Below are positions 19,091 to 44,667 of a stretch of 52,389 nt of DNA, in pieces. The stretch is from assembly GCA_049320885.1 (NCBI GenBank), contig JBMORA010000057.1, positions 1 through 52,389 on the forward strand, in the 5' to 3' direction. Positions within the stretch are counted from its first letter, which is position 1. Every line of letters begins with the position of its first letter. The translations under genes and the position numbers were made by a program. Under the pieces are notes generated by a model. It searched no databases. It had not been told where the DNA came from and saw only the letters and a program-made list of their open reading frames with translations. The DNA comes from Thermodesulfobacteriota bacterium (GTDB taxonomy: Bacteria > Desulfobacterota > Desulfobacteria > Desulfobacterales > SURF-7).

Positions 19091-19171
19091 TCATGTTGCA
19101 TCTTGCATTGATGGTATTACTTGAATTGGATTTTCGAAAAACAACGTCATAAACATACGCGTGCGGTGATC

Positions 19172-24300: not shown

Positions 24301-24336
24301 TATCAATTTGTTACACTATAAAAATGGAGCCATACC

Positions 24337-27300: not shown

Positions 27301-27717
27301 GCCCAGACACATAATCCGGCCTTTTACTACCATGTCGGAATTCTATTCCTGCGGTTCGGACAAACCGAAGCGGCCGGAAATCATTTTTCAAGAGCCGTGG
27401 AATTGGATTCGGGCTTCCTGCCGGCATTGAATCAGCTTGCGACCTTGCACCTGGCGGCAGGCGACTATACCCGGGCGATTGCCTATTACCAGAAAATGAT
27501 CGATCTGAAACCGCGTCTCTCACCCTTATATTACAATATCGCCTGTTTGTATGCCAGACAGAATAAAAACATGGAATCACTGGAGTGGCTGGAAAAGGCA
27601 TTTAACAATGGTTATACCAACTGGAACCTGGTCCGGACAGATACAGATCTGGCAAAACTGCGGCTGACCGAAGCATACCGGGAATTCATGCACCGCAATG
27701 GACAGGGCGACGGCTGA
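24337..27717 (+). CDS. Fused MFS-like membrane / spermidine-synthase-like SAM-fold protein with C-terminal TPRs
   Basis: Two membrane repeats (SGLTGLIYQILW..FMGGLGLGS; SGFCAMAYEVIW..), VLVLGFASGIT, VEIN, DGR, DIIISEPSNPW, then TPRs with a YNIACLYA cap; TTG start with GGAG upstream. Confidence 0.85.
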   Translation: MNDTTIQKSTNDAGQSSACLFTLILSCFFISGLTGLIYQILWTRMIVKVIGAAPFAVSIVLTVFMGGLGLGSYLAGRWIDRVQQPLQLVRIYGLLEIGIGAYGLALPLLLWAFRPLYSLVYNHLFHHFLIYNLTTFLGCSLLLILPVTLMGATLPVLSRFFVTSLSLIGTHIGRLYGLNTIGAAAGSLLCGFLLINYLGVHGSLFFAVILNALIGVICMIASRRWANIFHSPVLDGNQAEDPEEKRAMIVGTGEPVWHALSIFAISGFCAMAYEVIWVKLLGLLVGPTTYSFTIVLVTFITGLALGSIFFGWLSDRIHHPTFLLLITQIIAGLSALAVSQLIGDSQIFFSKLIQHFQNSFTQLILAQSFVLFCFMFLPTFCLGATFPLVGKIYTRSLQQTGKSIGYAYAVNTIGAVLGSFCAGFILIPFIGKELSIRVVTGLQVISALSIWLLLAARKGRKRLIFFPATALVITITCIAIFHYPNWNRLMLAKGKYHRFEQLKNHHLGWMESLLSGMKIHAKDEDAELAFYADGIGGFTSVLAIKPDVFGRQHYALLNSGKADASSQKGDMGTQTLLAHFPMLFHPRPETVLVLGFASGITAGEALHYPIRRLDAVEINQQVVRASEFFRPWNNKVLDDPKTELIIQDGRAHLELTDRTYDIIISEPSNPWMAGLATLFTREFMTLAKERLNKNGVFVQWIHSYQMNWDTFSMVGRTFSSVFPNGMLVSTNPLSPNHGPDFLLIGFQNEHPMDIGIAAVNLPYAQKSINMKLPNPQILYNLVVSENLEILFQYGPINTDNHPYLEYAAPKLLHYTKSADEIAARLTANAWLSSSTIAAIHNNHTSMDRLIDWEFFRFSFNQHGKQTLDLSKADPVQAERYRQLLHGYCSETPLYDFSFITDAKLKSECIASNLNSLSRHLESMADKAEHYYYMGWLCNSNHLPYDAANFFIKALEENPREAKVNDALKKLCQTKDARILYPMLQKALAAQTHNPAFYYHVGILFLRFGQTEAAGNHFSRAVELDSGFLPALNQLATLHLAAGDYTRAIAYYQKMIDLKPRLSPLYYNIACLYARQNKNMESLEWLEKAFNNGYTNWNLVRTDTDLAKLRLTEAYREFMHRNGQGDG

Positions 27718-28282: not shown

Positions 28283-28927
28283 ATGAAAAAACTGGCAATT
28301 ATCCTGGCAATCATGATGATCCCCTTTAGCGCTTTCGCACTGGACACCATTTCAGACGCCGATCTGAATGACCTTACCGGTCAGGCTGGTGTGAGCATCT
28401 TCCTCAACACCATCCGCATTGAAAAATCAGTTTGGTACTCCGGATACGGCGATGAAGGCGAAACCGCTTTCGGCGCCAACACCAACTGGTTGCTCACCAG
28501 AACCGATGGCCAGACCCAGGAAATCTCCTTCCTCGGCTCCAGAACCCTGGACATCGACATCGTCTCCCGTACTGAGTTCACCAATGCGGTGGCCCTGGGT
28601 GCAGTTCCCGGCGTTCTTAATGCTGACGCGGCTCGTTTCGGCGGCCTGGAAATGTCCGCTCTGAACGAAAGCCACACCGCGGTATCCGACAGCGTCTCCG
28701 ACGTTGCGGTGGTCATCAGCTTGCCCAATGGAATTCAGATTGCCAACTTCGGCACCCACAAGACCATCATGCTGGGCCAGGCTTCCAATGCCACCCTGCA
28801 ACCTGAAACGGTTGTGAATGATGTTCTGATCAGAACCTACAGCGGCGGCGGCACCACCACCATCACCGGCGCTGGCGGAGCTGCGGCAGCCAACAACGTC
28901 CACATCGGCATCATGGCTCACGACTAA
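28283..28927 (+). CDS. Secreted FilA/DUF6160-like protein, candidate major filament subunit
   Basis: AGGAGG RBS; Sec signal MKKLAIILAIMMIPFSAFA; then LDTISDADLNDLTGQAGVSI motif; own riboswitch and terminator. Confidence 0.75.
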   Translation: MKKLAIILAIMMIPFSAFALDTISDADLNDLTGQAGVSIFLNTIRIEKSVWYSGYGDEGETAFGANTNWLLTRTDGQTQEISFLGSRTLDIDIVSRTEFTNAVALGAVPGVLNADAARFGGLEMSALNESHTAVSDSVSDVAVVISLPNGIQIANFGTHKTIMLGQASNATLQPETVVNDVLIRTYSGGGTTTITGAGGAAAANNVHIGIMAHD

Positions 28928-29090: not shown

Positions 29091-29765
29091 ATGAATAAGG
29101 TTTTGCAAATCAGCACCCTCGCCATACTTACATTGTTCTGGCCGGTCTTTACCATCGCGCTGGAGGCGCTTTCAGAAGATGAAATGTATGACACCTCCGG
29201 CCAGGCTAGCCCCACGGTTTCGATTAAATACAGCGATGATTTGACAGTGGATTATTTCAATCAGAACGTGGTGGTTTTCGAATCCAAGGGGGAAACCTCC
29301 ATCAGCTTTGATAAAGTTTACTACAAGGCCTCACCCGAAAGCACCACCTTCCTCGCCTTGGTTTGGCCCGACAGCGCTAAATTCATTCTAGAATTTGATA
29401 AATACCCGAATTACCCTCTGGGCATCGGCGTATCCGTTTCTGATATACTTCGAACCGGCCAGGACGGTAAACCCCTGTCCAAATTCTATGACCCGGGGGC
29501 GCCAGCCGCTCTTCCTGCCAACACCAGTTACCTGCGCACCAAACCGGCGCCCGCCACGGTTCGTACGGTCGCGAATAAATTTTATATTGCTCTGGCCAAA
29601 GGAGAAAGCGGCGTTGAAGGAGAACCGGATTGGGATGAGGCCGAAAAACACGGCAAACTGTTATACATTTATAATAGCGGTTCACAACGGATGGAAATTA
29701 TGGGATATGCATATGTTTGGGGGCGTGAAACCAGTTGGGGTTTGAAAAACCTGGGATCACGGTGA
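29091..29765 (+). CDS. Secreted protein with FilA/DUF6160-like N-terminal motif (divergent)
   Basis: Signal peptide then ALEALSEDEMYDTSGQAS. Confidence 0.65.
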   Translation: MNKVLQISTLAILTLFWPVFTIALEALSEDEMYDTSGQASPTVSIKYSDDLTVDYFNQNVVVFESKGETSISFDKVYYKASPESTTFLALVWPDSAKFILEFDKYPNYPLGIGVSVSDILRTGQDGKPLSKFYDPGAPAALPANTSYLRTKPAPATVRTVANKFYIALAKGESGVEGEPDWDEAEKHGKLLYIYNSGSQRMEIMGYAYVWGRETSWGLKNLGSR

Positions 29766-29940: not shown

Positions 29941-31119
29941 ATGCGTTGTAATCCGACCATACAAATCAGGATCCTATTACCGATCTTCATATGGGCGATT
30001 CTATCGGTACCGCTTTCCCATGCCATTGAGGAATTGTCGGATATGGAGATGGAATCCATAACAGGTCAGGCAGGGGTCAGTATCTTTGTCACGACCATGA
30101 CCATCACCAATACCAATTCAAATTTTGTTATCTATGACACCGAGGGCGGTTCCATTGAATTCAGGCCGTTCACCTTGTCTCTCACCGCTGCTACAAGAAA
30201 TAAAACCTTTGATTTGGATTTATTTCATTATAATGAATGGTATGATGCGGAAACCACTTTTGTCGATACCTGGTCGGGGGGCACCCGCAATCTCACGGTC
30301 CAGCACCCGCTCTATGATCATGTCATTATCAACGGCTCCATTGAGAACATGGATCTGACCGTCAATGCATCCATGGACGATCTGTTTTTCAACAGCATCA
30401 ACATCGGCAAGCTGGATCTGACCAATCTGCGGGTTTCCGATGCCGCCATCAACGTGTTTCAACACAACGGCACCGGTATCGACGCCACGTTCAAAACCCG
30501 CTTCACCATCGACCAGATCGCCTACACCTACGACGACGAACAAAGCATTGACCCACGGGAACGCCTGCAATTCACCGGCATCACCGCCGCCGGCACCTTT
30601 GGCGGCGACCCCCTGCCGAGCTATGGGGATACCGTCAGTCCCGGTACCCCCATCAACACCGGAACCTGGACACCCACGGGGTATTTCGAAATCGGACAAC
30701 TCCAGCCGGTCTGGTCGTCGGCATTCGTCGATGACCCGCTTCTCCAGGACGATGCCCCCGAAGCGTCCCTGAATTCGTTCTCCATTGATTTCAAGGAAGA
30801 CAATTCTCCCTTCATCCGGCGGCAGTTCATCGTCGACTGGCAGGGCAACTACAACCCCGATCCGGACGGCTATATCGGTGACGGAACCACCACCCCGCAT
30901 ATTGCCAATGATCGGGAAAACGAAGTGTATGTCGATCTGGGGCTTCCGCTGAAAGGCTCCATCCGGTTTGAAACCAGTGTAAGATACTATGGCGGCGGAC
31001 CCGCCACCGAAGCGGATTACGGCCCTTCGGCCATCGACGGCATCAGCGGGTACACCCGCATCGAGGCCCCGGGATACGGGATTGGAAATTCACCCACGAC
31101 ATCAACATTATATGAATAG
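29941..31119 (+). CDS. Secreted FilA/DUF6160-like protein
   Basis: Signal peptide (..VPLSHA) then IEELSDMEMESITGQAGVSI; acidic, beta-rich body (IGKLDLTNL, YTYD). Confidence 0.72.
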   Translation: MRCNPTIQIRILLPIFIWAILSVPLSHAIEELSDMEMESITGQAGVSIFVTTMTITNTNSNFVIYDTEGGSIEFRPFTLSLTAATRNKTFDLDLFHYNEWYDAETTFVDTWSGGTRNLTVQHPLYDHVIINGSIENMDLTVNASMDDLFFNSINIGKLDLTNLRVSDAAINVFQHNGTGIDATFKTRFTIDQIAYTYDDEQSIDPRERLQFTGITAAGTFGGDPLPSYGDTVSPGTPINTGTWTPTGYFEIGQLQPVWSSAFVDDPLLQDDAPEASLNSFSIDFKEDNSPFIRRQFIVDWQGNYNPDPDGYIGDGTTTPHIANDRENEVYVDLGLPLKGSIRFETSVRYYGGGPATEADYGPSAIDGISGYTRIEAPGYGIGNSPTTSTLYE

Positions 31120-31145: not shown

Positions 31146-32057
31146 ATGGATTGGACCGTGAATCTCAGACATCGCTTATCGGGTTTCCGCAAAACAGGTA
31201 TCGTGACCTTCGCGATCCTGTCCCTGCTGGTTGCCGCACCGGTATCGGCGGAACTCTCACCGTTGAGCGACACGGAAATGGACACCATCACCGGCAGGCA
31301 GGGGTTGTCCGAATTCACCATCGAAGGCAATACTGCCCGGATATTTTTCGACATCCATGTTGAAACCTATATGGAGGTGGATTCCCTCAAACTGGGTTAT
31401 TATCAGAAATCGGATGCCGGTGTCGGCACCACCGGCGATTTGAACACCGCCAAATGGAGCGCCCTGGGAACCAAATCCTATAACAACAATTACGCCTATG
31501 TCCGTGAATTCGGGTCATCCGGACCCAACCTGTTTGAAGGCCTCCAGGGCGACGGCCAGAACATGAACACCCACGATTGGGACATCAACTGGGAAAATGT
31601 GAAACTCGGTAAAAGCAAAACCGAACCGTTGATCATCAACGGCCTCATCATGCAGGTTGAATTTGACGATATCAACGCCACCGATAAAAAATTGAAACGG
31701 GTGGTGATGGGTACCAACGACATGCAAGGGCAACTGAGCGCTGACATGCTGCGCACCACCGGTTTGATCAACCCGATGACCACCACGGACAGCCAGGCCC
31801 GGGCCCTTGCCAGCACCAATCCGGCCGACGGGAATCCGCTGCTCCTGAAACGCGACAGTCTCGGCAGCAACTGGGACAACTATGTTCTCAATGCCGGCGA
31901 TCACGATACCGGTTTCTGGGTTATCCTCAATTTCGGTTCCGGCCCCAGCGGTGAAACCGATCATATCGGCTGGGAGATCATCTCCGGATATGACGAACGG
32001 GCCGTCAACTTCAGTTACAAGGACGGCATCGAGAATGTCGACCTGTCCGGATATTAA
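31146..32057 (+). CDS. Secreted protein with FilA/DUF6160-like N-terminal motif
   Basis: Signal peptide (..APVSA) then ELSPLSDTEMDTITGRQG; IHVETYMEVDSLKLGYY...WDINWENVKLG. Confidence 0.68.
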   Translation: MDWTVNLRHRLSGFRKTGIVTFAILSLLVAAPVSAELSPLSDTEMDTITGRQGLSEFTIEGNTARIFFDIHVETYMEVDSLKLGYYQKSDAGVGTTGDLNTAKWSALGTKSYNNNYAYVREFGSSGPNLFEGLQGDGQNMNTHDWDINWENVKLGKSKTEPLIINGLIMQVEFDDINATDKKLKRVVMGTNDMQGQLSADMLRTTGLINPMTTTDSQARALASTNPADGNPLLLKRDSLGSNWDNYVLNAGDHDTGFWVILNFGSGPSGETDHIGWEIISGYDERAVNFSYKDGIENVDLSGY

Positions 32058-32255: not shown

Positions 32256-32339
32256 CACCCAAAATCCAACCAGGGACCGACCTGTTTGCCCCATCCAACC
32301 GGTGGTCTTGTGACATAATTGCCATGTAAGGATTGCACC

Positions 32340-35300
32340 ATGCGCCTTTTGCTAAACCAGAAAAAAATATATCCCCTTCTTGCCTGTCTGCTGCTGATTC
32401 TGTGCATGTTTCATCCCGCTTACGGCGGCGAACATGCTTTTCTGTATGACACAACCGAAGGCATGGTCGAACTGGGCACCCTGGGAGGCGACGAAAGCTT
32501 CGCGCTGGATATCAACAACAACGGTGCCGTGACTGGTTTCTCCAACCTGGCGGTGGGCGGTTCCAACGCCCATGCTTTTATATGGGTGGACAATATCAGC
32601 GGCGGTACCATGACCGACATCCATACGCTGACCGGCACGCAAAGCGTGGGCCGGGCCTTGAACGATTCCAACCAGGTCGTGGGTCAATTCCGAAACACCG
32701 CCGGGAAAGACCGGGCCTTTATTTGGGACAGCACCAACGGCATGCGGGATATCATCGGCACCCTCGGCGGCGACTCCAGCCAGGCATACGATATCAACAG
32801 TACCGGCCGCGTGGTGGGTTATTCCAAAACCGCCGGTGGATTCACCCATGCATTTATCTGGGACGAGGTGGGCGGAATCCGGGATATCGGCACCTTGACC
32901 GGGGGAACGGAAAGCTATGCCTATGGCATCAACAATTCCGGTCTTGTGGTTGGCTACTCTAATAAAACCGGCTCTTCCAGCACATTCTATCTGTTCACCT
33001 GGGACAGTTCCAACCCAGCCAATCCATTGGTGGACCGCGGCGTGATCATCGGCGAGCGTTTGAAAAACCTGGGAATCAATACCGCCGGACAGATCGGCGG
33101 TCACTACCTGGCCTCTTCCCCCAACTCCCATGGTTTCTTTTATAATGGTGCACTGACGGATATCGGCGTCCTGCCCGGCGACAACCGCAGCCTGGCCTTT
33201 GCCATCAACGATTCCGGAAGGGTCGTCGGCTATTCGCTGCCTTCCAACCATGGAATTCTCTGGGACGGCACCGGCGGACTGGTGGACTTCAGCGCCCCGT
33301 TCCTTGGCGGCGAGGACCGCTGTTTTGCCTACAGCATCAACAACAGCGGTCAGATCGTGGGGGCCAAAACCCCCAATGCCCCGCCGAACCCGCCGGTTTT
33401 TCTTTATCCCACGGACGGCGCCACCGGCATCGCCTTGACTGTCACCATCCAGACGGATGCCTTTTACGATCCGGACATGGATGACCCCACAACACCGGAC
33501 GACACCCACGGCCGGACCCGCTGGCAGATCAGTACCGTGCCGTTTGCCCCCCCCCCGACGGCCACCGATATGGTCATGGACATTACCAGCAGCACCCTGC
33601 TGACCTCTTTGACAGTACCCGTTTCCCTGCTGCGGGAAAACACCCGATATTATCTTCGTGCCTGCTTTTACGACAGCCGCGGGGCCCGCTCCGATTGGAC
33701 GGCCATTTCGTTCACAACGGCAACCATCGGCGACGACCTGCTGCCGAGCGGAGGCAACGGCGTACCGGACACCCAGGATGTGGATGCCACCGTGGATATG
33801 GATGCCAACAGTGTCCCGGATATCAACCAGACGGATCTCCGGGCGGTGAATACGCTCGTGGGCCAGGGCCGGATCGCCATCAAGCACCTTGCCAATGTCA
33901 CGGCCATCAACGGTTTCCGCTCCATTGATCCGGCAACCATTACCGATATGACCAATCGCCCGGAAATGATCCCCCTGGGCTTGATCAGCTGCCGCCTGGC
34001 GGTAACGACCCCGGGCGCCACGGCCCGGATAACCGTCTACCTCTCCGATCCGTCGCCCAACGGTGAATGGCATAAATACAATACCATTGACGGCTGGCAG
34101 AATTATACCTCCCATGCCGTATTCACCACTCCCGTTGAACTGACCCTGGAACTCCAGGACGGTGGTTTCGGTGACGCGGATGGCGCCGCCAACGGAGTCA
34201 TTATCGATCCCTCCGGATTCGCCTTCGCCGCTTCCCCCAATCCGCCTGCTACGCCGATTCCGGTTTCACCGGCAAACGGCGCCGTCAATGTGGATCTGGC
34301 GCCGACCCTGCAGACCGGACCATTCAATGATCCGGATGGCAACAGCCATTACCGTACGGAATGGGAAGTCAGTACGGATTCAGGTTTCAGCAGTCCGGTT
34401 TTCAGCTCCCGCACCACCACGGATCTGACAACCATCACCCTGCCGGAAGGAACCCTGGCCTCCTCGACCACCTATTACTGGCGGGTCCGGTTCACCGATA
34501 ACTATTATGCCGTCTCCAACTGGTCCGCGGTTTCCTCCTTTACAACCCTGAACATTCCTCCGGCCGCACCCGGGCCGGTTTCTCCGGCCGATGATGCCGT
34601 GGATGTGAGCCGCCTGCCGACCCTGACCACCGGAGCTTATTCCGATCCGGAAGGGAATCCTCATACCCAGACCCAATGGCAGCTCAGCCTGACGGAAGAT
34701 TTCGCAGCGCCCGCTTATGACCTTACCAGCAGCACGGATCTGACGACCCACACCGTACCCCTTGCGTCCATCCTGGACCGCGGCACCTTGTATTTCTGGC
34801 GGGTGCGCTTTTATGACGACCAGGGCAGCATATCGGACTGGTCCACGGTTTTCTCCTTCACCACAACCTCCAATACATTGCCGGAACAACCAAGCCCGGT
34901 GGCGCCGCTTGATGCGGCCGCGGATGTCGGCACGATGGCGAATCTTGAGGCTTCCGCTTACTCGGACCTGGACGGTGACAGCCATTTCCAGACCCAGTGG
35001 CAAATCAGCACCTCCTCCGACTTTTCCGCCCTTATCTTGGACGTCATAAGCGACACGCATCTGACAACACTAACGGTGCCGGATGTGGTGCTGAATGGCG
35101 GCGCCCTGTATTACTGGCGTACCCGCTATTACGACAACCAGATTCCGGCCGGTGAATCCGCCTGGTCGGCGGTTTTTTCCTTTACCACCACCGCCGACTC
35201 CGGTGACGCCAACGCCAACGGTATCCCGGACACCCAGGAAGTTTCCGGTCAAACGGATCTGGACGGAAACGGAACCCCGGATATCAACCAGAACGATATC

Positions 35301-38300
35301 AAATCCTTCAACACCCTGTTGGGTGAAGCCGGCATCGGCGTGAAGGGCGCCAACTCTATTTCGGCCGTTACGGCGGCCAAATCCGTTGATCCCGCCGCAA
35401 TAACCGACGCTACAGGCAGACCGGCCGTGATCCCGCTGGGTCTTTTCGGATTCCGCGCGACCACGGTCAATCCAGGGGATACCGGCGAAATTCAGCTCTA
35501 CCTCTCCATTCCGCTGCCGTCAACGGCATGGTATGCCTATGACACGGTTTCCGGCTGGCAGGATCTCAGCTCCCGGATAGCGTTCAGCCCCGGCAACACC
35601 TTGGCGACCCTGACCATCCAGGACGGCGGCATCGGAGATGCCGATGGCGCCGCCAACGGCGCCATAGTCCATCTCGGCTGCTTCGGTTATCCGGTCTCCA
35701 ATCCTCCGGATCAACCGCTTACGGTCAGTCCCCTGAACGGCGCATCCGGGGTGTCCCTTTCCCCATCCCTGGAAACAGGTCCTTTTACCGATCCGGATCT
35801 GAACATGCATTTCAGCACCCAGTGGCAGGTATCCACGGATCCGCTGTTTGCGACAACGGATTATTCCACCGCCAGCCTGACGGCCCTCACCCTGTTGGCG
35901 GTGCCGGAAGGCACCCTCTCCTCCAACACCACTTATTACTGGCGAGCGCGATATTATGACGCGGACTGTGCCGTTTCAGCCTGGTCCACGACGGTTTCCT
36001 TCACCACGCTGAACCTGCCGCCGGTTTCGCCGATCCTAGCCGCACCAGCGGATACCACCACCGAGGTCAGCCGCATTCCGGCTTTATCCACGGATGGGAC
36101 CTACAGTGACCCGGAAGGGAATCCCCACGCCCAGACACAGTGGCAGATTTGTGCCACGGACGATTTCACGACCCCGGTCTATGACCTTACCAGCAATACG
36201 GATCTGACGACCCATACCGTGCCGGTGGCATCCATCCTGAATCGTACCACGCTCTATTACTGGAGGGCGCGCTTCATCGACGATCAGGGCAGCCTCTCGA
36301 GCTGGTCAGCGGTTTTTTCCTTCACCACAACCGCCAACACGCCGCCGGATCAGCCGACCCTGGTCTCGCCTGCGGATGCATCCATAGATGCCAACACAAC
36401 CCCGATCCTTCAGACAAACGCCTTTACGGATCTGGACGGAGACACCCATCTGATGACCGACTGGCAAATCAGTACCGCCTCGGACTTCGCAAATCTTTTG
36501 TACAATAACCAGAGTTCCGGCAACCTGACCTCCATTTCCATTCCGGATATGATTCTGAATGGCGGCTCCTTGTATTATTGGCGCGCGCGACATTACGACA
36601 ATCAGACACCCAGTGGCGTTTCTCCATGGTCCTTGCCGTTTACGTTTACAACAGTGAATCAGGCTGCTGATATCAACGCCAACGGAATTCCGGATACCCA
36701 GGAAGTGCCGGCCTATGTCGACCTGGACGCCGACGGCACGCCGGATATCAACCAGATCGATATCAAATCCGTCCAGACCCTGGTGGGCGGCGGCCGGATC
36801 GGTGTCAAGACAGCCGGCGGCGTAACCGGTATCAGTAGCGCCAAATCCGTTGATCCGACTAGCATCACGGATACGACCAGTCGACCGGAAGTCATGCCCA
36901 TCGGTTTGATCGGTTTCAAGGCCGCCGTGGCAGCCCCCGGTGATACAGGAACCGTTACGGTCTATCTGTCCGATCCCGCACCGATCAGCGCCTGGTACCA
37001 CTACAGCGCAGACAGCGGATGGCTGGATCTCAGTTCCCAGGCGGTATTTAACGCGGAACGGGATATGGTGACCCTGACAATCCAGGACGGCGGGACAGGC
37101 GATGCGGATCACATCGCCAATGGAGTGATCGTTCATCTTGGCGGCTTCGGTTTCGCCGCTTCCTCTCCGCCGGAACAACCCGCCTTGTCGTCCCCGGCAA
37201 ACGGAACCGTGGATGAAAGCCTATCCCCGGCCCTTGCAGCCGGTGCATTCACCGATCCGGAAGGCAACAGTCATTACAGAACCCAATGGCAGGTCAGTAC
37301 CGCCTCGGATTTCAGTTCTCTGGTTATGGACATTAACACAACCATTCATTTGACCCAGATAACCATCCCGGCCACCGTGTTAAACCAGAACACGCTTTAC
37401 TACTGGCGTGTTCGGTACACGGACAATTATTATGCCGTATCGTCATGGTCGGCGGCTTTCACCTTCACCACCATCCTTACCAATGACGATGCCAACGCCG
37501 ACAGCGTTCCCGATCTTCTGGAACTCGATCCGGCCATCGATATGGATGTGGATTTGGACAACAACGACACGGCCGATCTCGGCCAGACGGATATCAAATG
37601 TCTGCAAAGTCTGGTCGGCGTCTTTGGCAATGAGATGATCGGCGTTAAACAAACCGCCGACGTGACCGGCATCCTCCGCATCAATTCCATCGATCCGGCC
37701 GGCATTGCGGATACCGCCGGACGGCCGGGAGTATTGCCCTTCGGTCTGATCAGCATGAAACTGGCCGTGGTAAACGCCGGTCAGAATGCTCAGGTTGAGA
37801 TTTACTTCTCCGATCCGGCTCCCCTGTCGGCCTGGTATACCTATGATACCGTTGATGGTTGGCGCGACATGACCCACCTCGCCACTTTCAGCGCCGACCG
37901 CAAAACCGTCACCCTGACCATCCAGGACGGCGGTTACGGCGATCATGACGGCGCAACCAACGGTATGATCGTGCATACTGGCGGGTTCGGCTTCCCGGCT
38001 TCTGCCAATGCACCGGCAGTTCCCGGCATTGCCGTGCCCGGCGACGGCTCATTGACACCCGCTTTGCAAGCCGGCGCGTTCGCGGATTTGGATGGGGATT
38101 CCCATTTCAAAACCCACTGGCAGGTGAGCACCACGGACAATTTTTCAACTTTGGTGCTGGACAGGATCACCGGCCCGGTCACCTCGCTGGCCATCCCTTA
38201 TGGGATGCTGACCGCCGGGACGACATATTATTGGCGGGCCCAATTCTACGACAATTATTATACCGCCTCCGGCTGGCCGGTTGCGGCGGGGTTCACCACT

Positions 38301-38897
38301 GGAACCGATCCGAACGATCTCAATACAAACGGCATCCCGGATGCCCAGGAAGTGGATGCCGGGATTGACCTGGATGGGAACGGCACTGCGGACAACGCCC
38401 AGACGGATATCAAGTCCGTCAATACGATCATCGGCGGGGGCCAGATGGGGATTAAAGCCTCCACCAATGTCTTCTCCATCGATGCGATCCAATCCGTGGA
38501 CCCGGCGACATTGCCGGACGGTGGCGACGGCAAGCCGGCCAGCATGCCCCTCGGTATCCTGGACTTTCGCATTACCGTAACGACACCCGGGGATACCGCC
38601 CAGGTGGTCGTATATTTCTCCCAGGCCGCTCCGGCGGCCGAATGGTTCAAATATGATCCCATCAGCAGTTGGACGAATTATTCAAACCATGCCGTTTTCG
38701 CCGCCGATATGCTGTCCGTCACCTTGACATTGAAAGACGGCGCCTTCGGCGATGCAGACGGGGTTGCCAACGGAATCATTATCGATCCCTCCGGTCCTGG
38801 AAAGCTGGTAGTGGATCCGGTCAATCCCAGCCCGGGCGGCAGTGGAGATACGGACAGCGGCGGCGGATGCTTTATCAGCAGTATGCTGCATGACTGA
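32340..38897 (+). CDS. Large secreted repeat protein / putative adhesin: HAF repeats, 9 FN3-like modules, 5 choice-of-anchor-U-like domains, C-terminal GGGCFISS sorting motif
   Basis: Signal peptide; ~7 HAF-type repeats (GTLGG..S.A.DIN..G.VVG..HAFIW); P..P..SP...TQWQ.S...F...YYWR.R modules; five LT.xDG..GD.D...NG.I domains; Gly/Ser linker + GGGCFISS at the C-terminus. Start ATG 32340 preferred. Confidence 0.85.
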   Translation: MRLLLNQKKIYPLLACLLLILCMFHPAYGGEHAFLYDTTEGMVELGTLGGDESFALDINNNGAVTGFSNLAVGGSNAHAFIWVDNISGGTMTDIHTLTGTQSVGRALNDSNQVVGQFRNTAGKDRAFIWDSTNGMRDIIGTLGGDSSQAYDINSTGRVVGYSKTAGGFTHAFIWDEVGGIRDIGTLTGGTESYAYGINNSGLVVGYSNKTGSSSTFYLFTWDSSNPANPLVDRGVIIGERLKNLGINTAGQIGGHYLASSPNSHGFFYNGALTDIGVLPGDNRSLAFAINDSGRVVGYSLPSNHGILWDGTGGLVDFSAPFLGGEDRCFAYSINNSGQIVGAKTPNAPPNPPVFLYPTDGATGIALTVTIQTDAFYDPDMDDPTTPDDTHGRTRWQISTVPFAPPPTATDMVMDITSSTLLTSLTVPVSLLRENTRYYLRACFYDSRGARSDWTAISFTTATIGDDLLPSGGNGVPDTQDVDATVDMDANSVPDINQTDLRAVNTLVGQGRIAIKHLANVTAINGFRSIDPATITDMTNRPEMIPLGLISCRLAVTTPGATARITVYLSDPSPNGEWHKYNTIDGWQNYTSHAVFTTPVELTLELQDGGFGDADGAANGVIIDPSGFAFAASPNPPATPIPVSPANGAVNVDLAPTLQTGPFNDPDGNSHYRTEWEVSTDSGFSSPVFSSRTTTDLTTITLPEGTLASSTTYYWRVRFTDNYYAVSNWSAVSSFTTLNIPPAAPGPVSPADDAVDVSRLPTLTTGAYSDPEGNPHTQTQWQLSLTEDFAAPAYDLTSSTDLTTHTVPLASILDRGTLYFWRVRFYDDQGSISDWSTVFSFTTTSNTLPEQPSPVAPLDAAADVGTMANLEASAYSDLDGDSHFQTQWQISTSSDFSALILDVISDTHLTTLTVPDVVLNGGALYYWRTRYYDNQIPAGESAWSAVFSFTTTADSGDANANGIPDTQEVSGQTDLDGNGTPDINQNDIKSFNTLLGEAGIGVKGANSISAVTAAKSVDPAAITDATGRPAVIPLGLFGFRATTVNPGDTGEIQLYLSIPLPSTAWYAYDTVSGWQDLSSRIAFSPGNTLATLTIQDGGIGDADGAANGAIVHLGCFGYPVSNPPDQPLTVSPLNGASGVSLSPSLETGPFTDPDLNMHFSTQWQVSTDPLFATTDYSTASLTALTLLAVPEGTLSSNTTYYWRARYYDADCAVSAWSTTVSFTTLNLPPVSPILAAPADTTTEVSRIPALSTDGTYSDPEGNPHAQTQWQICATDDFTTPVYDLTSNTDLTTHTVPVASILNRTTLYYWRARFIDDQGSLSSWSAVFSFTTTANTPPDQPTLVSPADASIDANTTPILQTNAFTDLDGDTHLMTDWQISTASDFANLLYNNQSSGNLTSISIPDMILNGGSLYYWRARHYDNQTPSGVSPWSLPFTFTTVNQAADINANGIPDTQEVPAYVDLDADGTPDINQIDIKSVQTLVGGGRIGVKTAGGVTGISSAKSVDPTSITDTTSRPEVMPIGLIGFKAAVAAPGDTGTVTVYLSDPAPISAWYHYSADSGWLDLSSQAVFNAERDMVTLTIQDGGTGDADHIANGVIVHLGGFGFAASSPPEQPALSSPANGTVDESLSPALAAGAFTDPEGNSHYRTQWQVSTASDFSSLVMDINTTIHLTQITIPATVLNQNTLYYWRVRYTDNYYAVSSWSAAFTFTTILTNDDANADSVPDLLELDPAIDMDVDLDNNDTADLGQTDIKCLQSLVGVFGNEMIGVKQTADVTGILRINSIDPAGIADTAGRPGVLPFGLISMKLAVVNAGQNAQVEIYFSDPAPLSAWYTYDTVDGWRDMTHLATFSADRKTVTLTIQDGGYGDHDGATNGMIVHTGGFGFPASANAPAVPGIAVPGDGSLTPALQAGAFADLDGDSHFKTHWQVSTTDNFSTLVLDRITGPVTSLAIPYGMLTAGTTYYWRAQFYDNYYTASGWPVAAGFTTGTDPNDLNTNGIPDAQEVDAGIDLDGNGTADNAQTDIKSVNTIIGGGQMGIKASTNVFSIDAIQSVDPATLPDGGDGKPASMPLGILDFRITVTTPGDTAQVVVYFSQAAPAAEWFKYDPISSWTNYSNHAVFAADMLSVTLTLKDGAFGDADGVANGIIIDPSGPGKLVVDPVNPSPGGSGDTDSGGGCFISSMLHD

Positions 38898-39039: not shown

Positions 39040-39052
39040 TAAACAGTGTTCA
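39040..39052. promoter_or_regulatory. Palindromic operator-like site, copy 4 (TAAACAGTGTTCA)
   Basis: One arm mismatch to TAAACA-N-TGTTTA; ~50 bp upstream of the C39 peptidase start. Confidence 0.55.
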
Positions 39053-39099
39053 TTGCAGTTAATCAAGTTTGTAGATCGTTTCCCGGAGTTGCCCAACAT

Positions 39100-39843
39100 A
39101 TGGAAATTTTTCTTATCTTCCTTCTCATTGTCGGTCTGGTAGGCGGGGAAGATATGGCCACGGAAACACCCCAGGGCGAGATACGCTTGTATCCGGAAGT
39201 CAACAGCCTGACGGTCATCAGACCGGTGGTCAAGCCCCTCTCGGATATCCTGGATGACCGCATCATCCGGCAGGAATTCGATTACAGCTGCGGATCAGCG
39301 GCCCTTTCCACTTTATTGAATTTCTATCTGGGTGAAAAACTGTCCGAGCGCCAGGTTATTCATGGTCTTCTGCGTTATGGAGACAGCGAGCAGATCGCGG
39401 AGCGACGCGCCTTCTCGTTGCTGGACATGAAAAAATTCGTCACCGTGCTGGGATACAAAGGGGTTGGCTATAAAGCGGAAATCACGGACCTGGAAGAGCT
39501 CGGGAAACCCTGTATTCTGCCGATCAAGGTCTTCGGATATAGGCATTTTACTGTTTTTAAAGGTATTTATAAAGGACACGTCTTCCTGGCCGACCCCTGG
39601 AAAGGGCATTCCAGTTACACCCTTTCGGAATTCAAGGACATCTGGTACGAAAACGTGCTGTTTGTCGTATATCCGGAAGGCGGGAAAGAATTGGACGCCC
39701 TGCGTCTCAAGGAATCGGACCTGCGGTTCATCGATGAGGACACGACTTTTTATTATCTTTTCCGGCAGCCGCCGTTGTTGAGTATTCCTGAAAGGCAGAT
39801 CGATGATATTCCGGGAACATTGCAATATTATAAACGACACTAA
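39100..39843 (+). CDS. Stand-alone secreted C39 family cysteine peptidase (FilB/FapD-like)
   Basis: RQEFDYSCGSAAL (Gln/Cys), RRAFSLLDMK, YRHFTVFKG (His), LADP (Asp); hydrophobic N-terminus from ATG 39100; no ABC transporter domains. Confidence 0.9.
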   Translation: MEIFLIFLLIVGLVGGEDMATETPQGEIRLYPEVNSLTVIRPVVKPLSDILDDRIIRQEFDYSCGSAALSTLLNFYLGEKLSERQVIHGLLRYGDSEQIAERRAFSLLDMKKFVTVLGYKGVGYKAEITDLEELGKPCILPIKVFGYRHFTVFKGIYKGHVFLADPWKGHSSYTLSEFKDIWYENVLFVVYPEGGKELDALRLKESDLRFIDEDTTFYYLFRQPPLLSIPERQIDDIPGTLQYYKRH

Positions 39844-39894: not shown

Positions 39895-41853
39895 ATGAAG
39901 GATAACAGGGGGAACATGATAAAACAATCTGGAACGCTACTCGTCATCCTATGGACGATATTTTTCGCCGCGCCACCCATTTGGATCCCGGAAGGTCTGG
40001 CGGAAGAGTTATCAAATGAACTCGCGGCCACTGAAAATCCTCGGGCAACCGTGTCCCCGAAAAAAACAGCCACCTCCCCCACGGGTTATGCGATCCAGAC
40101 AGGTGTATTCCTGATAATGGAAAACGCCCGTCAAATGATGACGAATCTGCGCATGAAAGGATATGAACCATATATCTTTCAAACGGTTAACGATAAAAAG
40201 CAGAAACTGTATGTGGTCAGAATCGGTGACTATCGCACCCTGCGCCAGGCCTCATCCGCGGCTGATCAGTTCAAGAACCTGGAGCATCTGCCGGCGGTGA
40301 TCACGCCCATCAACTCCACCAAGGCCGTCGATACCCCTCTTTACCTGACAACAGCTTCCAAAAACGGCGTCATTTCAACAGAGGAACTATCGGAAATCGA
40401 CGGCGGCACCGGCTCGCTGATCGATTCCGAAGAACTAGCCACCATCGACGGTCAAACCGGCGCCATCCTGCAAACCGATGAATTATCGCAAATCGCCGCC
40501 CAGAGCGGTACCGTCATTACCACCGACGAAATGGCCGTTGTGGACGGCAGAACCGGAACGATCATACCGGCGGATGAAATGGCCACGGTGGACGGCCGGA
40601 CCGGCACGGTGGTGTCGCCCGGCGAACTGGCCACAGTTGATGGCCGGACCGGCACGGTGGTGCCTTCCGGTGAGCTGGCCACCGTGGACGGCCAAACCGG
40701 TCAGGCCATCCCCAAGGGGGACCTTTCTAAAATCCGCGCCCAGTCGGCGGGGGTGTCCTTTTCCCCGGCCGATGACGCCGAACCATTCGTCTTTTCACAA
40801 AAAGCCACGAAAGAGGATGCACCTCAGGAAGACGATCCGTTCGGCATCTCCTCGGAACAGGAAGGAGGAGGACAAGGAATCGATAACGCCACGGCCCGAC
40901 AGCTGAAAGACCAGATCGAAGCCCTGCAGGAAAAAGTCAACGAACTCCGGGAAGAAGCCGACGTCCGTAAAATTCTGGAAATCACCGAAGAGGAAAAGCA
41001 GGAGGAAGAAGAGGAAATTCTCTCCGCCACGGGCCGTGACTACACCATGGCCAAAAAGGGCAGCATTGGTTTTGATTACGGTCTTTCCTATACCTACAAC
41101 TCCTTTGATGCCATCGAGGATGCCGCCAACTTGACCAAGATCGAGCATCGCGCCCAGCATAATGTCACTAATTCCCTTGGGCTTGTCTACGCCGTGCGCG
41201 ACAATGTCTCCTTCGGCGCCAACATCCCCTTTGTTTACAGTTATGACAGCATGGGAACGGAATCCCCGAAAAAGGTCACGGACATCGGCGATGTCTCCCT
41301 CAGTCTTCAGTGGCAACCTCTCAAGGCAGGGGGCAGTCTGCCGCCGGGAATCCTCAGCTTCAGCTTCACCATGCCCAGCGGTCGAAGCCCCTATGAAATC
41401 AACCCGGAGGAAGAACTCTCAACCGGCTCAGGCCTGAAAAGTCTGTCAGCAGGATTATCCTTGAATCATCCCATGGATCCGGTGGTGACTTATGGCGGTA
41501 TCACCTACGGATATTCGCTGCCACTGGAAAATCTGGACTCCCAGCGCTACGGCGACATTCTCACGGAGGTCCATCCCGGCCAATCCATCGGCATCAGGCT
41601 TGGTCTCGGTTACGCTCTCTCGTATCAGTTGAACATGAACCTCAACCTGAGTTATTCGTACCAATTCGGAGCCGAGTATGTTTATCGATACAGCGGCATC
41701 CAACCATCGGCGGATTCGGCCAGCGCGAATTTCAGTATCGGCACTGGTTGGCGGATCTCACCCACCAGGTCTCTGAACATATCGCTTTCAAAAGGGTTGA
41801 GCAATGACGCGTCGGATTTTTCACTGGGCCTGTCCGTCCCCTTCAATTTCTAG
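39895..41853 (+). CDS. Outer-membrane transporter (FilC/FapF-like barrel) fused to a SPOR domain, 16-aa repeats and a coiled coil
   Basis: AGGAGG RBS; signal peptide; SPOR-like YAIQTGVF..ENA...L..KGY...LYVVRIG.Y; coiled coil (QLKDQIEALQEKVNELRE); barrel motifs IGDVSLSLQWQP, PSGRSPY, STGSG, DPVV.YG; terminal SVPFNF. Confidence 0.82.
   Translation: MKDNRGNMIKQSGTLLVILWTIFFAAPPIWIPEGLAEELSNELAATENPRATVSPKKTATSPTGYAIQTGVFLIMENARQMMTNLRMKGYEPYIFQTVNDKKQKLYVVRIGDYRTLRQASSAADQFKNLEHLPAVITPINSTKAVDTPLYLTTASKNGVISTEELSEIDGGTGSLIDSEELATIDGQTGAILQTDELSQIAAQSGTVITTDEMAVVDGRTGTIIPADEMATVDGRTGTVVSPGELATVDGRTGTVVPSGELATVDGQTGQAIPKGDLSKIRAQSAGVSFSPADDAEPFVFSQKATKEDAPQEDDPFGISSEQEGGGQGIDNATARQLKDQIEALQEKVNELREEADVRKILEITEEEKQEEEEEILSATGRDYTMAKKGSIGFDYGLSYTYNSFDAIEDAANLTKIEHRAQHNVTNSLGLVYAVRDNVSFGANIPFVYSYDSMGTESPKKVTDIGDVSLSLQWQPLKAGGSLPPGILSFSFTMPSGRSPYEINPEEELSTGSGLKSLSAGLSLNHPMDPVVTYGGITYGYSLPLENLDSQRYGDILTEVHPGQSIGIRLGLGYALSYQLNMNLNLSYSYQFGAEYVYRYSGIQPSADSASANFSIGTGWRISPTRSLNISLSKGLSNDASDFSLGLSVPFNF
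40369..40752 (+). repeat. Eight in-frame 48-nt (16-aa) tandem repeats resembling double-glycine leader peptides
   Basis: VISTEELSEIDGGTGS / LIDSEELATIDGQTGA / ILQTDELSQIAAQSGT / VITTDEMAVVDGRTGT / IIPADEMATVDGRTGT / VVSPGELATVDGRTGT / VVPSGELATVDGQTGQ / AIPKGDLSKIRAQSAG. Confidence 0.88.
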
Positions 41854-41868: not shown

Positions 41869-43647
41869 ATGACCAGCAGAGGACAAGATACCCAACAACC
41901 ATCTCCGACTGAAATCCTCTTCCGGATTGCGACCGTATTTGTCTATCTATTCCTGTTCGCGCCCGTTGTCACTTTTGCGGCATTCAACGAACAGATGGTG
42001 GTGGATCCCATTTCCATTGCCTTGGGCAACTCCGTCACCGCCCGGCCCCCTGGGATTGCCTCCCTGCATTTCAATCCTGCCGGTTTGACCAAACTGCCCG
42101 AGGGCAAATTGAAAGGCAGCGGTCTTACGGTCGCCCGGACGGTTCGAAAGGTGACCACCTATCCGGATCAGAATTTCGGCGGCTTCATGAACACCTTCGG
42201 GCCAGCGGAAAAAGGCATGCGGCCCGACCCCTGCTGGGGCGTGGAAGGCACCAGCACCAGTACGGATTTGTTCATACCCATCAAGGGCGCCATTCATTTC
42301 GATCCCTTTCTGGCCCTGCCGACATCCACCCAGGCCTACACCAAACCCGGCTCCCGATGGTCCTTTGCCCGTGGCGTCATCTCACCGTTTTCCGGAGGCT
42401 TTTCCCACAAAATCAACAATGACCCGAACATGTTCTTTGCCCGGGAACTCTATTCCCAGCGAATCAATTATCTGTCTCCAGGAGTGGGATACCGGGTCAG
42501 CGACCAGTTTTCCGTCGGGCTGACCGTGGCTGCGGGGATGACCAACTTCGGCGTCAAGGGTTTCCGCCGCAGCCCGAGCCATATGACCGCCCTCACCAAA
42601 ATCCTCGGCGAAGCGACCAGGACTTTGAACATCCCGATCATCTCCCAGGAAACCCTTCCGCCTCCCTGGTTCGGCGGTGGCATCAGTCCCTGGGAACCGG
42701 TGATGGAAATGCAGGTCCGCATGAACGACTGGTTCAGCCCCAGCTACAACATCGGCGCCCTGTGGGAACCGAATCAGTATATCTCTTTCGGCGCGGTCTA
42801 TCAAAGTGAAATCCGCAATGAAATGACCGGCGACTACATGTTTTCCTATACCCCGCCCTTCAGGAGCATGATCGACTGGTTCGGCTCATCACCCCTGCTG
42901 CAAATCCAATCCGCCATTCTGGACCTTCCCACCCAGTCCGTTCCGTACCAGAAAGGCACAGTGGTGTCGGAATACAGTTTCCCCCAGCGCGTGCAGGCCG
43001 GCGTCATGCTGTCGCCATTCAAAAAAATGCGTCTGCTCTGCGATGTCCACTGGGCGGACTGGTCGGTCTGGCCGGCCATGGAGCTCCATTTCGACCAGGA
43101 CATCCAGGCCCTGAGGCTGGCCAAACTCTCTGGTCACACCCACGGCAACCGGACCGTTGTATCAGAAACCGGCCTTCACGACACCTTTCACTGGAGTTAC
43201 GGTCTGGAATACGACCTGTCCAATGTTCTGTGCCTGAGACTGGGTTATGAAGACCGCCAGTCATCCGTCAATATTCAAGATTTCAGCCTCTCCAGCCTGC
43301 CGGACATTAAAAAATACGGTGTCGGCGTCGGCGTCAAGATGAAAAACGGCGCCACCCTGGATGTGGGCTACTCCTATGCCGACACCGGCGATTACTGGGT
43401 CCCCAATGACACCAGCGTCAACCTCAACTCCCTCCGATTCACCAAAACCTCCCAAAGTCAATACGCCGGCTCCCATGTCAAATTCCGGTTTTTCGCCCAT
43501 CTGTTCAGTTTCGCCATCACCAAACCGGTGACGGTTCCGGAAGAAACCGCTGTCCGCAAAGCGGATAAATTCAAAAAGCTGAAACAGAACCTGAAATTCA
43601 CCATGGAAAAGCTGAAGTCTTCCCTGAATCCGTTTAAAAAGAATTAA
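41869..43647 (+). CDS. FadL/OmpP1-family outer-membrane protein (FilD-like)
   Basis: IALGNSVTARPPGIASLHFNPAGL plug motif, SYNIGALWEP, DVHWADWS, LRLGYEDR. Confidence 0.85.
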   Translation: MTSRGQDTQQPSPTEILFRIATVFVYLFLFAPVVTFAAFNEQMVVDPISIALGNSVTARPPGIASLHFNPAGLTKLPEGKLKGSGLTVARTVRKVTTYPDQNFGGFMNTFGPAEKGMRPDPCWGVEGTSTSTDLFIPIKGAIHFDPFLALPTSTQAYTKPGSRWSFARGVISPFSGGFSHKINNDPNMFFARELYSQRINYLSPGVGYRVSDQFSVGLTVAAGMTNFGVKGFRRSPSHMTALTKILGEATRTLNIPIISQETLPPPWFGGGISPWEPVMEMQVRMNDWFSPSYNIGALWEPNQYISFGAVYQSEIRNEMTGDYMFSYTPPFRSMIDWFGSSPLLQIQSAILDLPTQSVPYQKGTVVSEYSFPQRVQAGVMLSPFKKMRLLCDVHWADWSVWPAMELHFDQDIQALRLAKLSGHTHGNRTVVSETGLHDTFHWSYGLEYDLSNVLCLRLGYEDRQSSVNIQDFSLSSLPDIKKYGVGVGVKMKNGATLDVGYSYADTGDYWVPNDTSVNLNSLRFTKTSQSQYAGSHVKFRFFAHLFSFAITKPVTVPEETAVRKADKFKKLKQNLKFTMEKLKSSLNPFKKN

Positions 43648-43809: not shown

Positions 43810-43877
43810 GCCAAACCATGGGTAACCATGGGACGGAAAGCCACGGGTCCTGACAGCCTCAGGATAGCCGGGTTGCC
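43810..43877 (+). ncRNA. c-di-GMP-I riboswitch aptamer core, tandem copy 1 of 4
   Basis: GCCAAAC; P2 CCATGG-GTAA-CCATGG; GACGGAAAG; P3 tip TCCTGA-CAGCC-TCAGGA; GGGTTGCC end; flanking P1 TAACCAG/CTGATTA. Confidence 0.92.
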
Positions 43878-43905
43878 TGATTATAGAACTGAACCGTTTT
43901 TTTTA

Positions 43906-43970
43906 GCCAAACCATGGGTAACCATGGGACGGAAAGCCACGGGTCCTGACCCCAGGATAGCCGGGTTGCC
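43906..43970 (+). ncRNA. c-di-GMP-I riboswitch aptamer core, tandem copy 2 of 4
   Basis: Same core; P3 tip shortened by 3 nt (TCCTG-ACCC-CAGGA) with pairing retained. Confidence 0.9.
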
Positions 43971-44000
43971 GGAATTGTCTATAACAGATTTTTACAACTA

Positions 44001-44068
44001 GCCAAACCACGGGTAACTGTGGGACGGAAAGCCACGGGTCCTGACAGCCTCAGGATAGCCGGGTTGCC
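44001..44068 (+). ncRNA. c-di-GMP-I riboswitch aptamer core, tandem copy 3 of 4
   Basis: Same core; P2 carries pairing-preserving changes (CCACGG-GTAA-CTGTGG). Confidence 0.9.
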
Positions 44069-44079
44069 TCCTTCTCAAT

Positions 44080-44147
44080 GCCAAACCATGGGTAACCATG
44101 GGACGGAAAGCCACGGGTCCTGACAGCCTCAGGATAGCCGGGTTGCC
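44080..44147 (+). ncRNA. c-di-GMP-I riboswitch aptamer core, tandem copy 4 of 4
   Basis: 68-nt core identical to copy 1; ends 13 nt before the GAAGGGAG RBS. Confidence 0.92.
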
Positions 44148-44175
44148 TGTGAGTTTCACAGAAGGGAGAATGAAT

Positions 44176-44667
44176 ATGAAAAAACGTAGTTTCCTTATGG
44201 CAGCAATTATTTGGGCATTCGCACTGTTAGCAACCCCCCAGACCGGTAATGCGAAACTGATGGAAATGTCCGATGCGGATTTAAATGAGATCACCGGCCA
44301 GGCCGGCTTCTCGATTCAAGCCGGTGAAATGATCGGCCTGCATATCGAAAGCGAAGCCTTTACCTGGGCGAATCCGGATTCCGTTGGGCCGGACGGCTTA
44401 CCCGCCGCTCTTACCTTCGCGGATACGACCCTGAACGGGTGGATCTCGTCTCCGAACGGCATGAACATCGACTTCATCACCGAACAAACGGCGGCAGGCA
44501 ACAATGTCACCGCTCTCAGCATCAACATGCAGGACATGACGGTTGCAATCGATGATTTCAAAACCAATATCAAACTGGGGGATTCCAGCCTTGGTGTTTT
44601 CGGCATCCAAGGATTGCGTGCCCAAATTTCAGGAAACGTGCGTATATACACCCGCAGCGATATGTAA
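44176..44667 (+). CDS. Secreted FilA/DUF6160-like protein (short)
   Basis: GAAGGGAG RBS 7 nt before ATG 44176; signal peptide (..TGNA); KLMEMSDADLNEITGQAGFSI; C-terminal IKLG..SLGVFGIQGL...ISGNVRIY. Confidence 0.78.
   Translation: MKKRSFLMAAIIWAFALLATPQTGNAKLMEMSDADLNEITGQAGFSIQAGEMIGLHIESEAFTWANPDSVGPDGLPAALTFADTTLNGWISSPNGMNIDFITEQTAAGNNVTALSINMQDMTVAIDDFKTNIKLGDSSLGVFGIQGLRAQISGNVRIYTRSDM

Follow-up and report, generated by a model that had tools for sequence, protein, structure and literature searches.

The outer-membrane channel protein FilC encoded in a 52,389 nt stretch of DNA from a Thermodesulfobacteriota bacterium (Desulfobacterales, SURF-7; assembly GCA_049320885.1, contig JBMORA010000057.1), hereafter referred to as the window, contains eight tandem 16-residue repeats that resemble a motif present near the N-terminus of the candidate fibre subunits encoded in the same locus. 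The best explanation of this array, which we put forward tentatively, is that it would serve as a multivalent leader mimic at which a leader-reading partner docks between cell wall and channel; this partner is most probably FilB, the C39 peptidase of the adjacent gene. Judged by its gene content, the locus codes for a fibre secretion system of the Fil type (Fap-like) comprising several Sec-exported DUF6160/FilA-like subunits, the peptidase FilB, the FapF-like channel FilC and the FadL-like protein FilD (Table 1). From the N- to the C-terminus, FilC is composed of a signal peptide, a SPOR domain, the repeat array, an acidic linker, a coiled coil and a beta-barrel, and each of the five secreted subunit candidates carries one motif copy within a few residues after its predicted signal-peptide cleavage site.

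The array consists of eight gap-free units starting at nt 40369, 40417, 40465, 40513, 40561, 40609, 40657 and 40705. A preliminary description of this DNA had reported eight 16-residue repeats between the SPOR domain and the coiled coil/barrel, and both their coordinates and their placement proved correct by translation, Pfam and AlphaFold2. Residues 16 positions apart were identical in 57 of 112 comparisons, against 9.5 ± 2.9 (maximum 28) when the same residues were shuffled 100,000 times, and at the DNA level 205 of 336 bases were identical at a lag of 48, compared with 54–98 at lags of 45–51. Tandem Repeats Finder recognized the youngest units only (period 48, 2.6 copies, 40576–40700, 81% matches). 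The consensus derived from 67 distinct units of nine orthologs, (V/I)(I/M)(P/S)x(D/G/E)E(L/M)(A/S)x(I/V)D(G/A)(Q/R)(T/A/S)(G/A)T, bore out the one proposed before from the window.

The pattern shared by the repeats and the subunits reads hydrophobic-(S)-x-x-(D/E)-(L/M)-x-x-hydrophobic-x-(G/A)-(Q/R)-x-G. When a position-specific scoring matrix (PSSM) built from 24 distinct subunit motifs was run against a background of 11,180 six-frame open reading frames (ORFs) of at least 150 residues from the genome, FilC ranked 7th, preceded by four known subunits and two chance matches. All eight units scored best in the register of the preliminary description when shifts from −3 to +3 were compared, and each of them lay within the top 2e-6 to 7e-4 of all scored sequence windows. 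In the reverse direction, a PSSM of the 67 distinct repeat units ranked the five subunits 6th (the protein encoded at 29091), 44th, 81st, 118th and 1438th among the same 11,180 ORFs. The profile–profile score of the two motifs was 18.2, as opposed to −36.4 ± 11.7 when columns were permuted (it was reached by 2 of 200,000 permutations), and was above zero at just one of the 16 circular shifts; hhalign aligned the repeats with the subunit motif over 15 columns (P = 1.4e-6). Q and R variants are present in subunits and repeats alike, and the A-Q variant of some repeats is the rule in the subunits of Smithella-type genomes. As the PSSM ranks, the register at all eight units, the permutations and hhalign agree, the alignment of the repeats with the subunit N-termini suggested earlier is upheld; on these sequence comparisons the likeness is real but short, and visible only when the whole motif is scored.

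The first repeat had further been likened to the double-glycine leader consensus, of which the register held and the label did not extend to the array as a whole. A double-glycine leader forms the N-terminus of a cytoplasmic precursor that is exported through a transporter combining a C39 domain with an ATP-binding cassette (ABC), and carries G-G (or G-A, G-S) before the cut. With canonical numbering of the leader positions, and as supported by the HMM alignments, the motif of the window has the same conserved spacing as the leaders that are read by C39 domains such as those of PCAT1 and LahT150 and that are described by TIGR01847, namely a hydrophobic residue, an acidic residue, L or M, a second hydrophobic residue and G before the cut. 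The TIGR01847 model (cut-off 15.7) gave 26.0 bits on the isolated 128-residue array and a borderline 15.1 bits (E = 0.027) on the full protein; its last 13 positions aligned to unit 1, with the model ending on G-G, and unit 1 alone matched. The same model was found at E ≤ 1 in four of the 11 aligned FilC homologs. G-G occurs only in unit 1 of the three closest orthologs, the other units carrying G-Q, G-R or A-Q, and the Q or R is conserved there. Sub-threshold Pfam matches fell on the leader parts of Bacteriocin_IIc and Lactococcin, and the subunit N-termini gave weak matches to lantibiotic precursor models. Unlike double-glycine leaders, the motif of the window comes either after a Sec signal peptide or in the form of internal repeats, its site is periplasmic, and its last position is Q or R instead of G, A or S; unlike the proteases of the PCAT1 type, the C39 peptidase of the window is a free protein and not a domain of an ABC transporter. 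In terms of sequence, then, the motif is a double-glycine leader in register only.

A neighbouring C39 peptidase had also been named, and FilB is just that, catalytically intact by the Pfam match, by residue conservation and by alignment with a solved relative. FilB matched PF03412 with 61.2 bits (cut-off 22), as well as the NCBIfam models pilus_FilB (E = 1.9e-59) and FapD (E = 2.7e-30). Among 53 homologs, Q58, C64 and H149 were invariant and D165 was retained in at least 90%. Among solved structures, FilB comes closest to two double-glycine leader proteases, LahT150 (6MPZ, E = 1.8e-9) and PCAT1, and its catalytic motifs align with those of 6MPZ. FilB was found in all five related genomes tested, and in two genomes with a repeat-less FilC it adjoins the DUF6160 genes and not FilC. 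FilB thus plausibly reads the motif. Complex prediction of FilB residues 40–247 (53-row alignment) with FilC residues 159–190, corresponding to units 1 and 2, gave scores of 0.54, 0.50 and 0.46 versus 0.00, 0.42 and 0.00 for the controls, an outcome that counts neither for binding nor against it.

Orthologs of the FilC of the window with an identical architecture were found, and close relatives come from Desulfobacterales metagenome bins. Variation in repeat number among the homologs, for which a survey had been proposed, ranged from 7 to 13 units in eight other full-length orthologs (49–78% identity), all of which have the SPOR domain. Unit-specific variants keep their positions across the orthologs, for example A-A-Q-S-G in unit 3, and recent duplications are seen in the longer arrays. 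For a wider survey, a FilC-family profile was compared with 1.84 billion representative proteins, and the best 150 of 5,923 matches were taken, 112 of them with an intact region before the barrel. Among these 112 representatives of the best 150 matches, 23 had a SPOR domain and only two carried at least three motif copies, one representing the clade of the window and the other a second clade (P0014/P0011), so that the architecture, which the preliminary description did not recognise from FapF or FilC, is indeed foreign to typical FilC/FapF proteins. Other SPOR-bearing FilCs from Thermodesulfobacteriota-type metagenomes (for example P0013, P0015–P0020, P0022 and P0024–P0027) show the same order of signal peptide, SPOR domain, long linker, coiled coil and barrel; unlike the FilC of the window, those that were read have Pro/Ala/Glu-rich low-complexity linkers without a leader-like motif, with 190–469 residues preceding the barrel.

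In the second clade (P0011, encoded at L017:1946-3793, and P0014) five to seven motif copies are located before the SPOR domain. They are one residue shorter after the Q/R, and with the repeat PSSM of the window they fell within the top 3e-7 to 1e-3 of the background windows. The genome encoding P0011 (G001) additionally contains a stand-alone secreted array protein of 159 residues (L039:1378-1857, + strand). This protein consists for the most part of leader-like units of the E-L-x-x-x-x-G-R-G-F type, is 59% identical to the N-terminal array of the FilC of this genome and had no Pfam family match. A search of G001 (a genome of ∼3.1 Mb, completeness unstated) for DUF6160 genes gave no matches at E ≤ 0.1. 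Arrays that are independent of position in this manner, placed before the SPOR domain or standing alone, would fit a binding module better than a mere tether. P0014 has an extra N-terminal stretch of ∼130 residues.

These findings bear on the proposal that FilB cuts the repeats in the same way as the subunit leaders and thereby either detaches the channel from the SPOR/peptidoglycan anchor or makes it change between an open and a closed state, the eight sites allowing graded or redundant cutting. We regard this as unlikely, yet as carrying a real share of the probability: the match of the repeats to the subunit motif extends across the presumed cut as far as position 15, the catalytic set of FilB is intact, and processing of the FapF linker by the peptidase FapD has been suggested from missing peptides in the Fap system of Pseudomonas (PMC5557850, excerpts). 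Release of a SPOR anchor is weakened by the second clade with its array before the SPOR domain and by the free array protein of G001, as cutting a pre-SPOR or stand-alone array could not detach the anchor from the barrel. Furthermore, the repeats differ constantly from the subunits beside the presumed cut, at positions 11 and 14, and one site would be enough for release, yet 7 to 13 are kept.

Less likely again is the explanation that the motif is an export signal read not by FilB but by the periplasmic mouth of FilC or by FilD, with the tethered copies occupying the site in cis to gate the pore, to prime it or to nucleate the first subunit. The motif is common to all five cargo candidates and to the channel itself, the array is situated just upstream of the coiled coil and barrel, and the periplasmic part of FapF is thought to recruit unfolded substrates (PMC5557850, excerpts). 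Against this, no observation connects the motif with binding by FilC or FilD, the majority of FilCs do their work in the absence of a motif array, and the sole family-level likeness of the motif is to leaders processed by C39 peptidases.

Whether the sequence of the array or just its length is maintained was addressed by a comparison of the window's FilC and its closest ortholog (locus L004), made separately for each region. The array was 91% identical at the amino acid level, with a ratio of non-synonymous to synonymous substitutions (dN/dS) of 0.08 (dN 0.050), a value derived from a single pair of orthologs whose synonymous sites are partly saturated, and which in this respect weighs less in favour of constraint. 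The corresponding figures were 81% and 0.079 for the barrel, 75% and 0.106 for the SPOR domain, 50% and 0.29 for the linker before the repeats, and 39% and 0.68 for the part before the SPOR domain; the acidic linker was 76% identical (dN/dS not computable) and the long helix of residues 331–378 was 96% identical. In this pair the array is under purifying selection to the same degree as the barrel, which argues for its sequence being of importance rather than length alone. A passive spacer or ruler, setting the distance between peptidoglycan and outer membrane and the flexibility between them, with the leader likeness as a relic of a captured and amplified piece of leader-coding DNA, is accordingly improbable in our view. 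Spacers of varying length do occupy this place in the other SPOR-FilCs read, and the differing copy numbers and recent duplications would suit such a role; but the linkers flanking the array are only 50–76% identical, the conserved columns are mostly those common to the subunit motif, and the second clade keeps a related array at another position.

An AlphaFold2 model of FilC (11 aligned homologs, best model kept) showed, as a monomer, a confident SPOR fold (pLDDT, the predicted local distance difference test score, 73–81), the long helix and then the barrel. The SPOR domain matched PF05036 with 42.8 bits (cut-off 21), and a peptidoglycan-binding role is predicted for it from the family; the helix lies where FapF's N-terminal periplasmic coiled coil has been described. 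Residues 148–330, covering the array and the acidic linker, had pLDDT values of 28–39 with short helical turns at the E-L positions only, and the array is thus predicted to be disordered and not a solenoid. The latter fold had been named in the preliminary description as the outcome that would speak against its proposal, and no such fold was obtained, the pLDDT of the array staying below 50. In the model of subunit 1, the motif forms a helix of residues 25–32 (pLDDT about 60) preceding a confident beta-domain. That the repeats fold into an independent domain, such as a metal-dependent solenoid formed by D-G-x-T-G turns, whose role is structural and has nothing to do with leaders, is very improbable, for all the regular 16-residue period, the conserved D-G and G positions and the mere 11 sequences in the alignment, given the low pLDDT of the array, the lack of any matching Pfam or NCBIfam repeat family and a protein atlas search with FilC residues 150–295 that returned no usable match.

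We therefore prefer docking of a leader-reading partner, because the array is predicted to be disordered, is conserved and dense in motifs, mimics the tag of the cargo and has an intact leader-type peptidase encoded next to it. Each copy would be a short linear motif, taking on the shape of an amphipathic helix upon binding. The array would then dock the component that reads the subunit leader, most probably FilB, between the SPOR-bound wall and the mouth of the channel, offering 24 sites per channel if FilC trimerises like FapF, and recognition or removal of the leader would thereby be coupled to export. The analysis demonstrates the repeats, their resemblance to the subunit motif, the prediction of disorder, purifying selection, an intact neighbouring peptidase and a narrow distribution; that the array binds, which partner it binds and how secretion is affected is inferred from these observations. 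The interpretation in the preliminary description, which offered tethering of the peptidase, a decoy role, seeding of polymerisation and cleavage freeing the SPOR anchor with no choice among them, is supported in part.

Several points weigh against docking by leader mimicry. C39 leader proteases generally need small residues at both positions preceding the cut, whereas the last position is Q or R in seven of the eight units and the preceding one is A in two of the eight, which would require of FilB a specificity other than the canonical one. A hidden Markov model (HMM) of the repeats, used for a local hmmsearch of the six-frame ORFs of the genome, retrieved the eight units and then noise, with no subunit among the top 60, and with the repeat PSSM one subunit ranked as low as 1438th. 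The constant differences between repeats and subunits, D versus T at position 11 and T versus A at position 14, could abolish recognition as easily as tune it. FilB also occurs in genomes without a repeat array, and 110 of the 112 FilC-family representatives lack one, so that the system as such can do without the array; in a sample of 301 genomes of the order, FilC was present in 42 and the array in four, all of one family. Finally, the corresponding region of the other SPOR-FilCs read is a Pro/Ala/Glu-rich and often repetitive spacer, and spacing may consequently be the primary job of the array.

A bolder extension is in our estimate very improbable: periplasmic C39 enzymes of the FilB type would recognise another leader, a post-Sec one, the copies on the tether would be real substrate sites in the clade of the window, and, in the boldest form, FilB would act as a transpeptidase. 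FilB would then bind the SPOR-bearing side of a tether site as an acyl-enzyme and pass this side on to the N-terminus newly exposed on a processed subunit. Were this true, the base of the fibre would be covalently joined to a peptidoglycan-bound stub, amounting to a sortase-like wall anchoring in a two-membrane bacterium.

The locus can be compared with two described systems. Like the locus of the window, in which the coiled coil is predicted, the Fap system of Pseudomonas combines a Sec-exported periplasmic C39 peptidase, a transporter made of coiled coil, linker and barrel, and fibre subunits that are exported after Sec translocation. In excerpts of the 2017 account (PMC5557850), secretion depends on FapD, whose substrate and recognition motif were not known at the time; FapF is a trimer in which the N-terminal part forms a coiled coil in the periplasm and the linker is disordered; and a functional link between peptidase and transporter linker was proposed and left unresolved, the linker being one candidate target. 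The window differs from Fap in its subunits, which are DUF6160 proteins and not FapB/C/E, in the additional FadL-like FilD, and in the SPOR domain and leader-mimic array of its FilC; no description of a FapF/FilC bearing either a SPOR domain or leader repeats was found in the literature searched, nor any paper naming FapF together with a SPOR domain. The FilC of the window matched the NCBIfam FapF model (NF058560) over the barrel only (75.3 bits, E = 3.9e-21; cut-off 700), and FilB scored 105 bits with the FapD model (cut-off 330).

The same gene set, consisting of a subunit, a C39 peptidase, a FapF-like barrel and a FadL-like protein, is found in the fil operon of Acinetobacter baumannii (FilA–FilF), the source of the NCBIfam models, which is described as a putative and uncharacterised pilus system (PMC4751259, excerpts). 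The A. baumannii papers retrieved that name FilF were confined to vaccine, review and proteome work. The pilus_FilC model (NF050079) matched with 188.5 bits (E = 2.3e-55; curated cut-off 630), its positions 48–377 of 384 aligning to residues 326–651, so that SPOR domain and repeats lie outside, and the FilA match of the gene at 28283–28927 was weak and confined to the N-terminal ∼65 residues. As all NCBIfam scores are below the curated cut-offs, the Fil proteins of the window, likened through these models, are distant relatives of those of Acinetobacter. Going by these matches, the system is Fap-type by working principle and a distant fil relative by gene content, and a curated-level member of neither.

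Table 1. Features of the Fil locus in the window (nucleotide positions of the window; aa, amino acid residues of the encoded protein)
Feature	Position	Strand	Basis and remarks
DUF6160/FilA-like subunit 1	28283..28927	+	Pfam DUF6160 E 3.4e-10; FilA E 8.5e-7; motif nt 28346-28393 (aa 22-37)
Subunit-like secreted protein 2	29091..29765	+	Motif nt 29166-29213; no Pfam match
DUF6160 subunit 3	29941..31119	+	Pfam DUF6160 E 1.7e-8; motif nt 30031-30078
DUF6160-like subunit 4	31146..32057	+	Pfam DUF6160 23.6 bits, below cut-off 27; motif nt 31260-31307, G-R not G-Q
FilB-like periplasmic C39 cysteine peptidase	39046..39843	+	Pfam Peptidase_C39 E 1.2e-16; NCBIfam pilus_FilB
FilC/FapF-family outer-membrane channel gene	39895..41853	+	652 aa; ORF and NCBIfam FilC/FapF matches
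SPOR domain, aa 62-132	40078..40290	+	Pfam PF05036, E 7e-11
Leader-like repeat array, 8 x 16 aa, aa 159-286	40369..40752	+	In-frame translation
Acidic low-complexity linker, aa 287-330	40753..40884	+	Sequence; pLDDT <50
Long periplasmic helix, aa 331-378	40885..41028	+	AlphaFold2 helices 331-361 and 365-378
Outer-membrane beta-barrel, aa 390-652	41062..41850	+	Pfam Phenol_MetA_deg aa 435-650; FilC and FapF HMMs; model strands
FilD-like FadL/OmpP1-family outer-membrane protein	41869..43647	+	Pfam Toluene_X E 3.3e-37; NCBIfam pilus_FilD E 2.2e-80
DUF6160 subunit 5	44098..44667	+	Pfam DUF6160 E 7e-8; probable start near 44170; motif nt 44263-44310

The genome contains one complete Fil locus. A search of the genome for a second Fil system found none; it turned up just one paralog each of a subunit (72% identity) and of a barrel (37%), and a distantly related C39 protein (29%). 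Three of the five subunit genes exceed the gathering score of 27 bits of DUF6160 (PF19657), those at 28283 (40.5 bits), 29941 (35.1 bits) and 44098 (33.1 bits). With regard to gene starts, one database record of the channel gene begins at an internal Met at nt 39916, and FilB probably starts at 39100, after which comes a hydrophobic N-terminus. Between FilD and the subunit 5 gene, four direct copies of a ∼70 nt element (43810–44149) were detected with 71–100% identity to the reference copy and a spacing of 79–96 nt. As the last of these copies overlaps the apparent start of the ORF at 44098, the real start of subunit 5 is probably that given near 44170.

Between the subunit genes and FilB, a secreted protein of 2192 residues (32319–38897, + strand) with HAF repeats and five ‘choice-of-anchor U’ domains is encoded. 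It ends in M-L-H-D and subunit 1 in M-A-H-D, and the His is nearly invariant in the subunit 1 family; the similar C-termini may represent a shared C-terminal signal. Upstream of the subunit genes, the region 13558–27717 (+ strand) encodes two glycosyltransferases of the GT2 type, four large membrane proteins bearing arrays of tetratricopeptide repeats (TPR) at their C-termini, and a 1126-residue membrane protein with a spermidine synthase-like domain and TPR; the products of this region may glycosylate or otherwise modify exported proteins.

The model of subunit 1 (pLDDT 82) displayed an all-beta domain with long hairpins, for which no clear relative of solved structure emerged and to which no fold was assigned. 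In a Foldseek search of the Protein Data Bank (PDB) its best matches were pore-forming beta-hairpin proteins (E = 1.3e-3, template modelling score 0.27), and a wide VIA-align search reached a best Z of 4.9. The environmental ‘pilus-like-alpha’ filament 9XFV recurred as a weak match in both searches (Z 4.1, root mean square deviation 8.2) and, being without sequence support, was rejected as a relative; the excerpts of the corresponding paper (PMC12956863) are silent on the subunit 1 family. A subunit 1 profile of 68 homologs, compared with the PDB sequences, gave one chance-level match (E = 1.8) and otherwise none.

In loci of the Smithella/Syntrophaceae type (L007–L016), FilC is short (389–452 residues), lacks SPOR domain and repeats, and carries a conserved motif after the signal peptide, G-x-Q-L-A-L-x-G-(V/I)-x-A-x-D-A. 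In two genomes of this type, FilB and the DUF6160 genes lie ∼26–30 kb from FilC/FilD on the same contig.

The leader-repeat FilC is a new variation on a known, barely studied system, which is widespread yet uncharacterised: 1,484 FilB-like proteins were found at E ≤ 1e-10, besides the FilC genes in 42 of the 301 genomes of the order. If the array were merely a spacer, it would be a curiosity of linker evolution. The locus provides a concrete candidate recognition motif for a periplasmic C39 peptidase of the Fap type, present once on each of five cargo candidates and eight times on the channel, which hints at how such periplasmic proteases choose their targets, and through which the proposed link between peptidase and transporter could be tested in a simple manner. 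The array would also be a case in which part of a bacterial secretion machine mimics a short linear motif.

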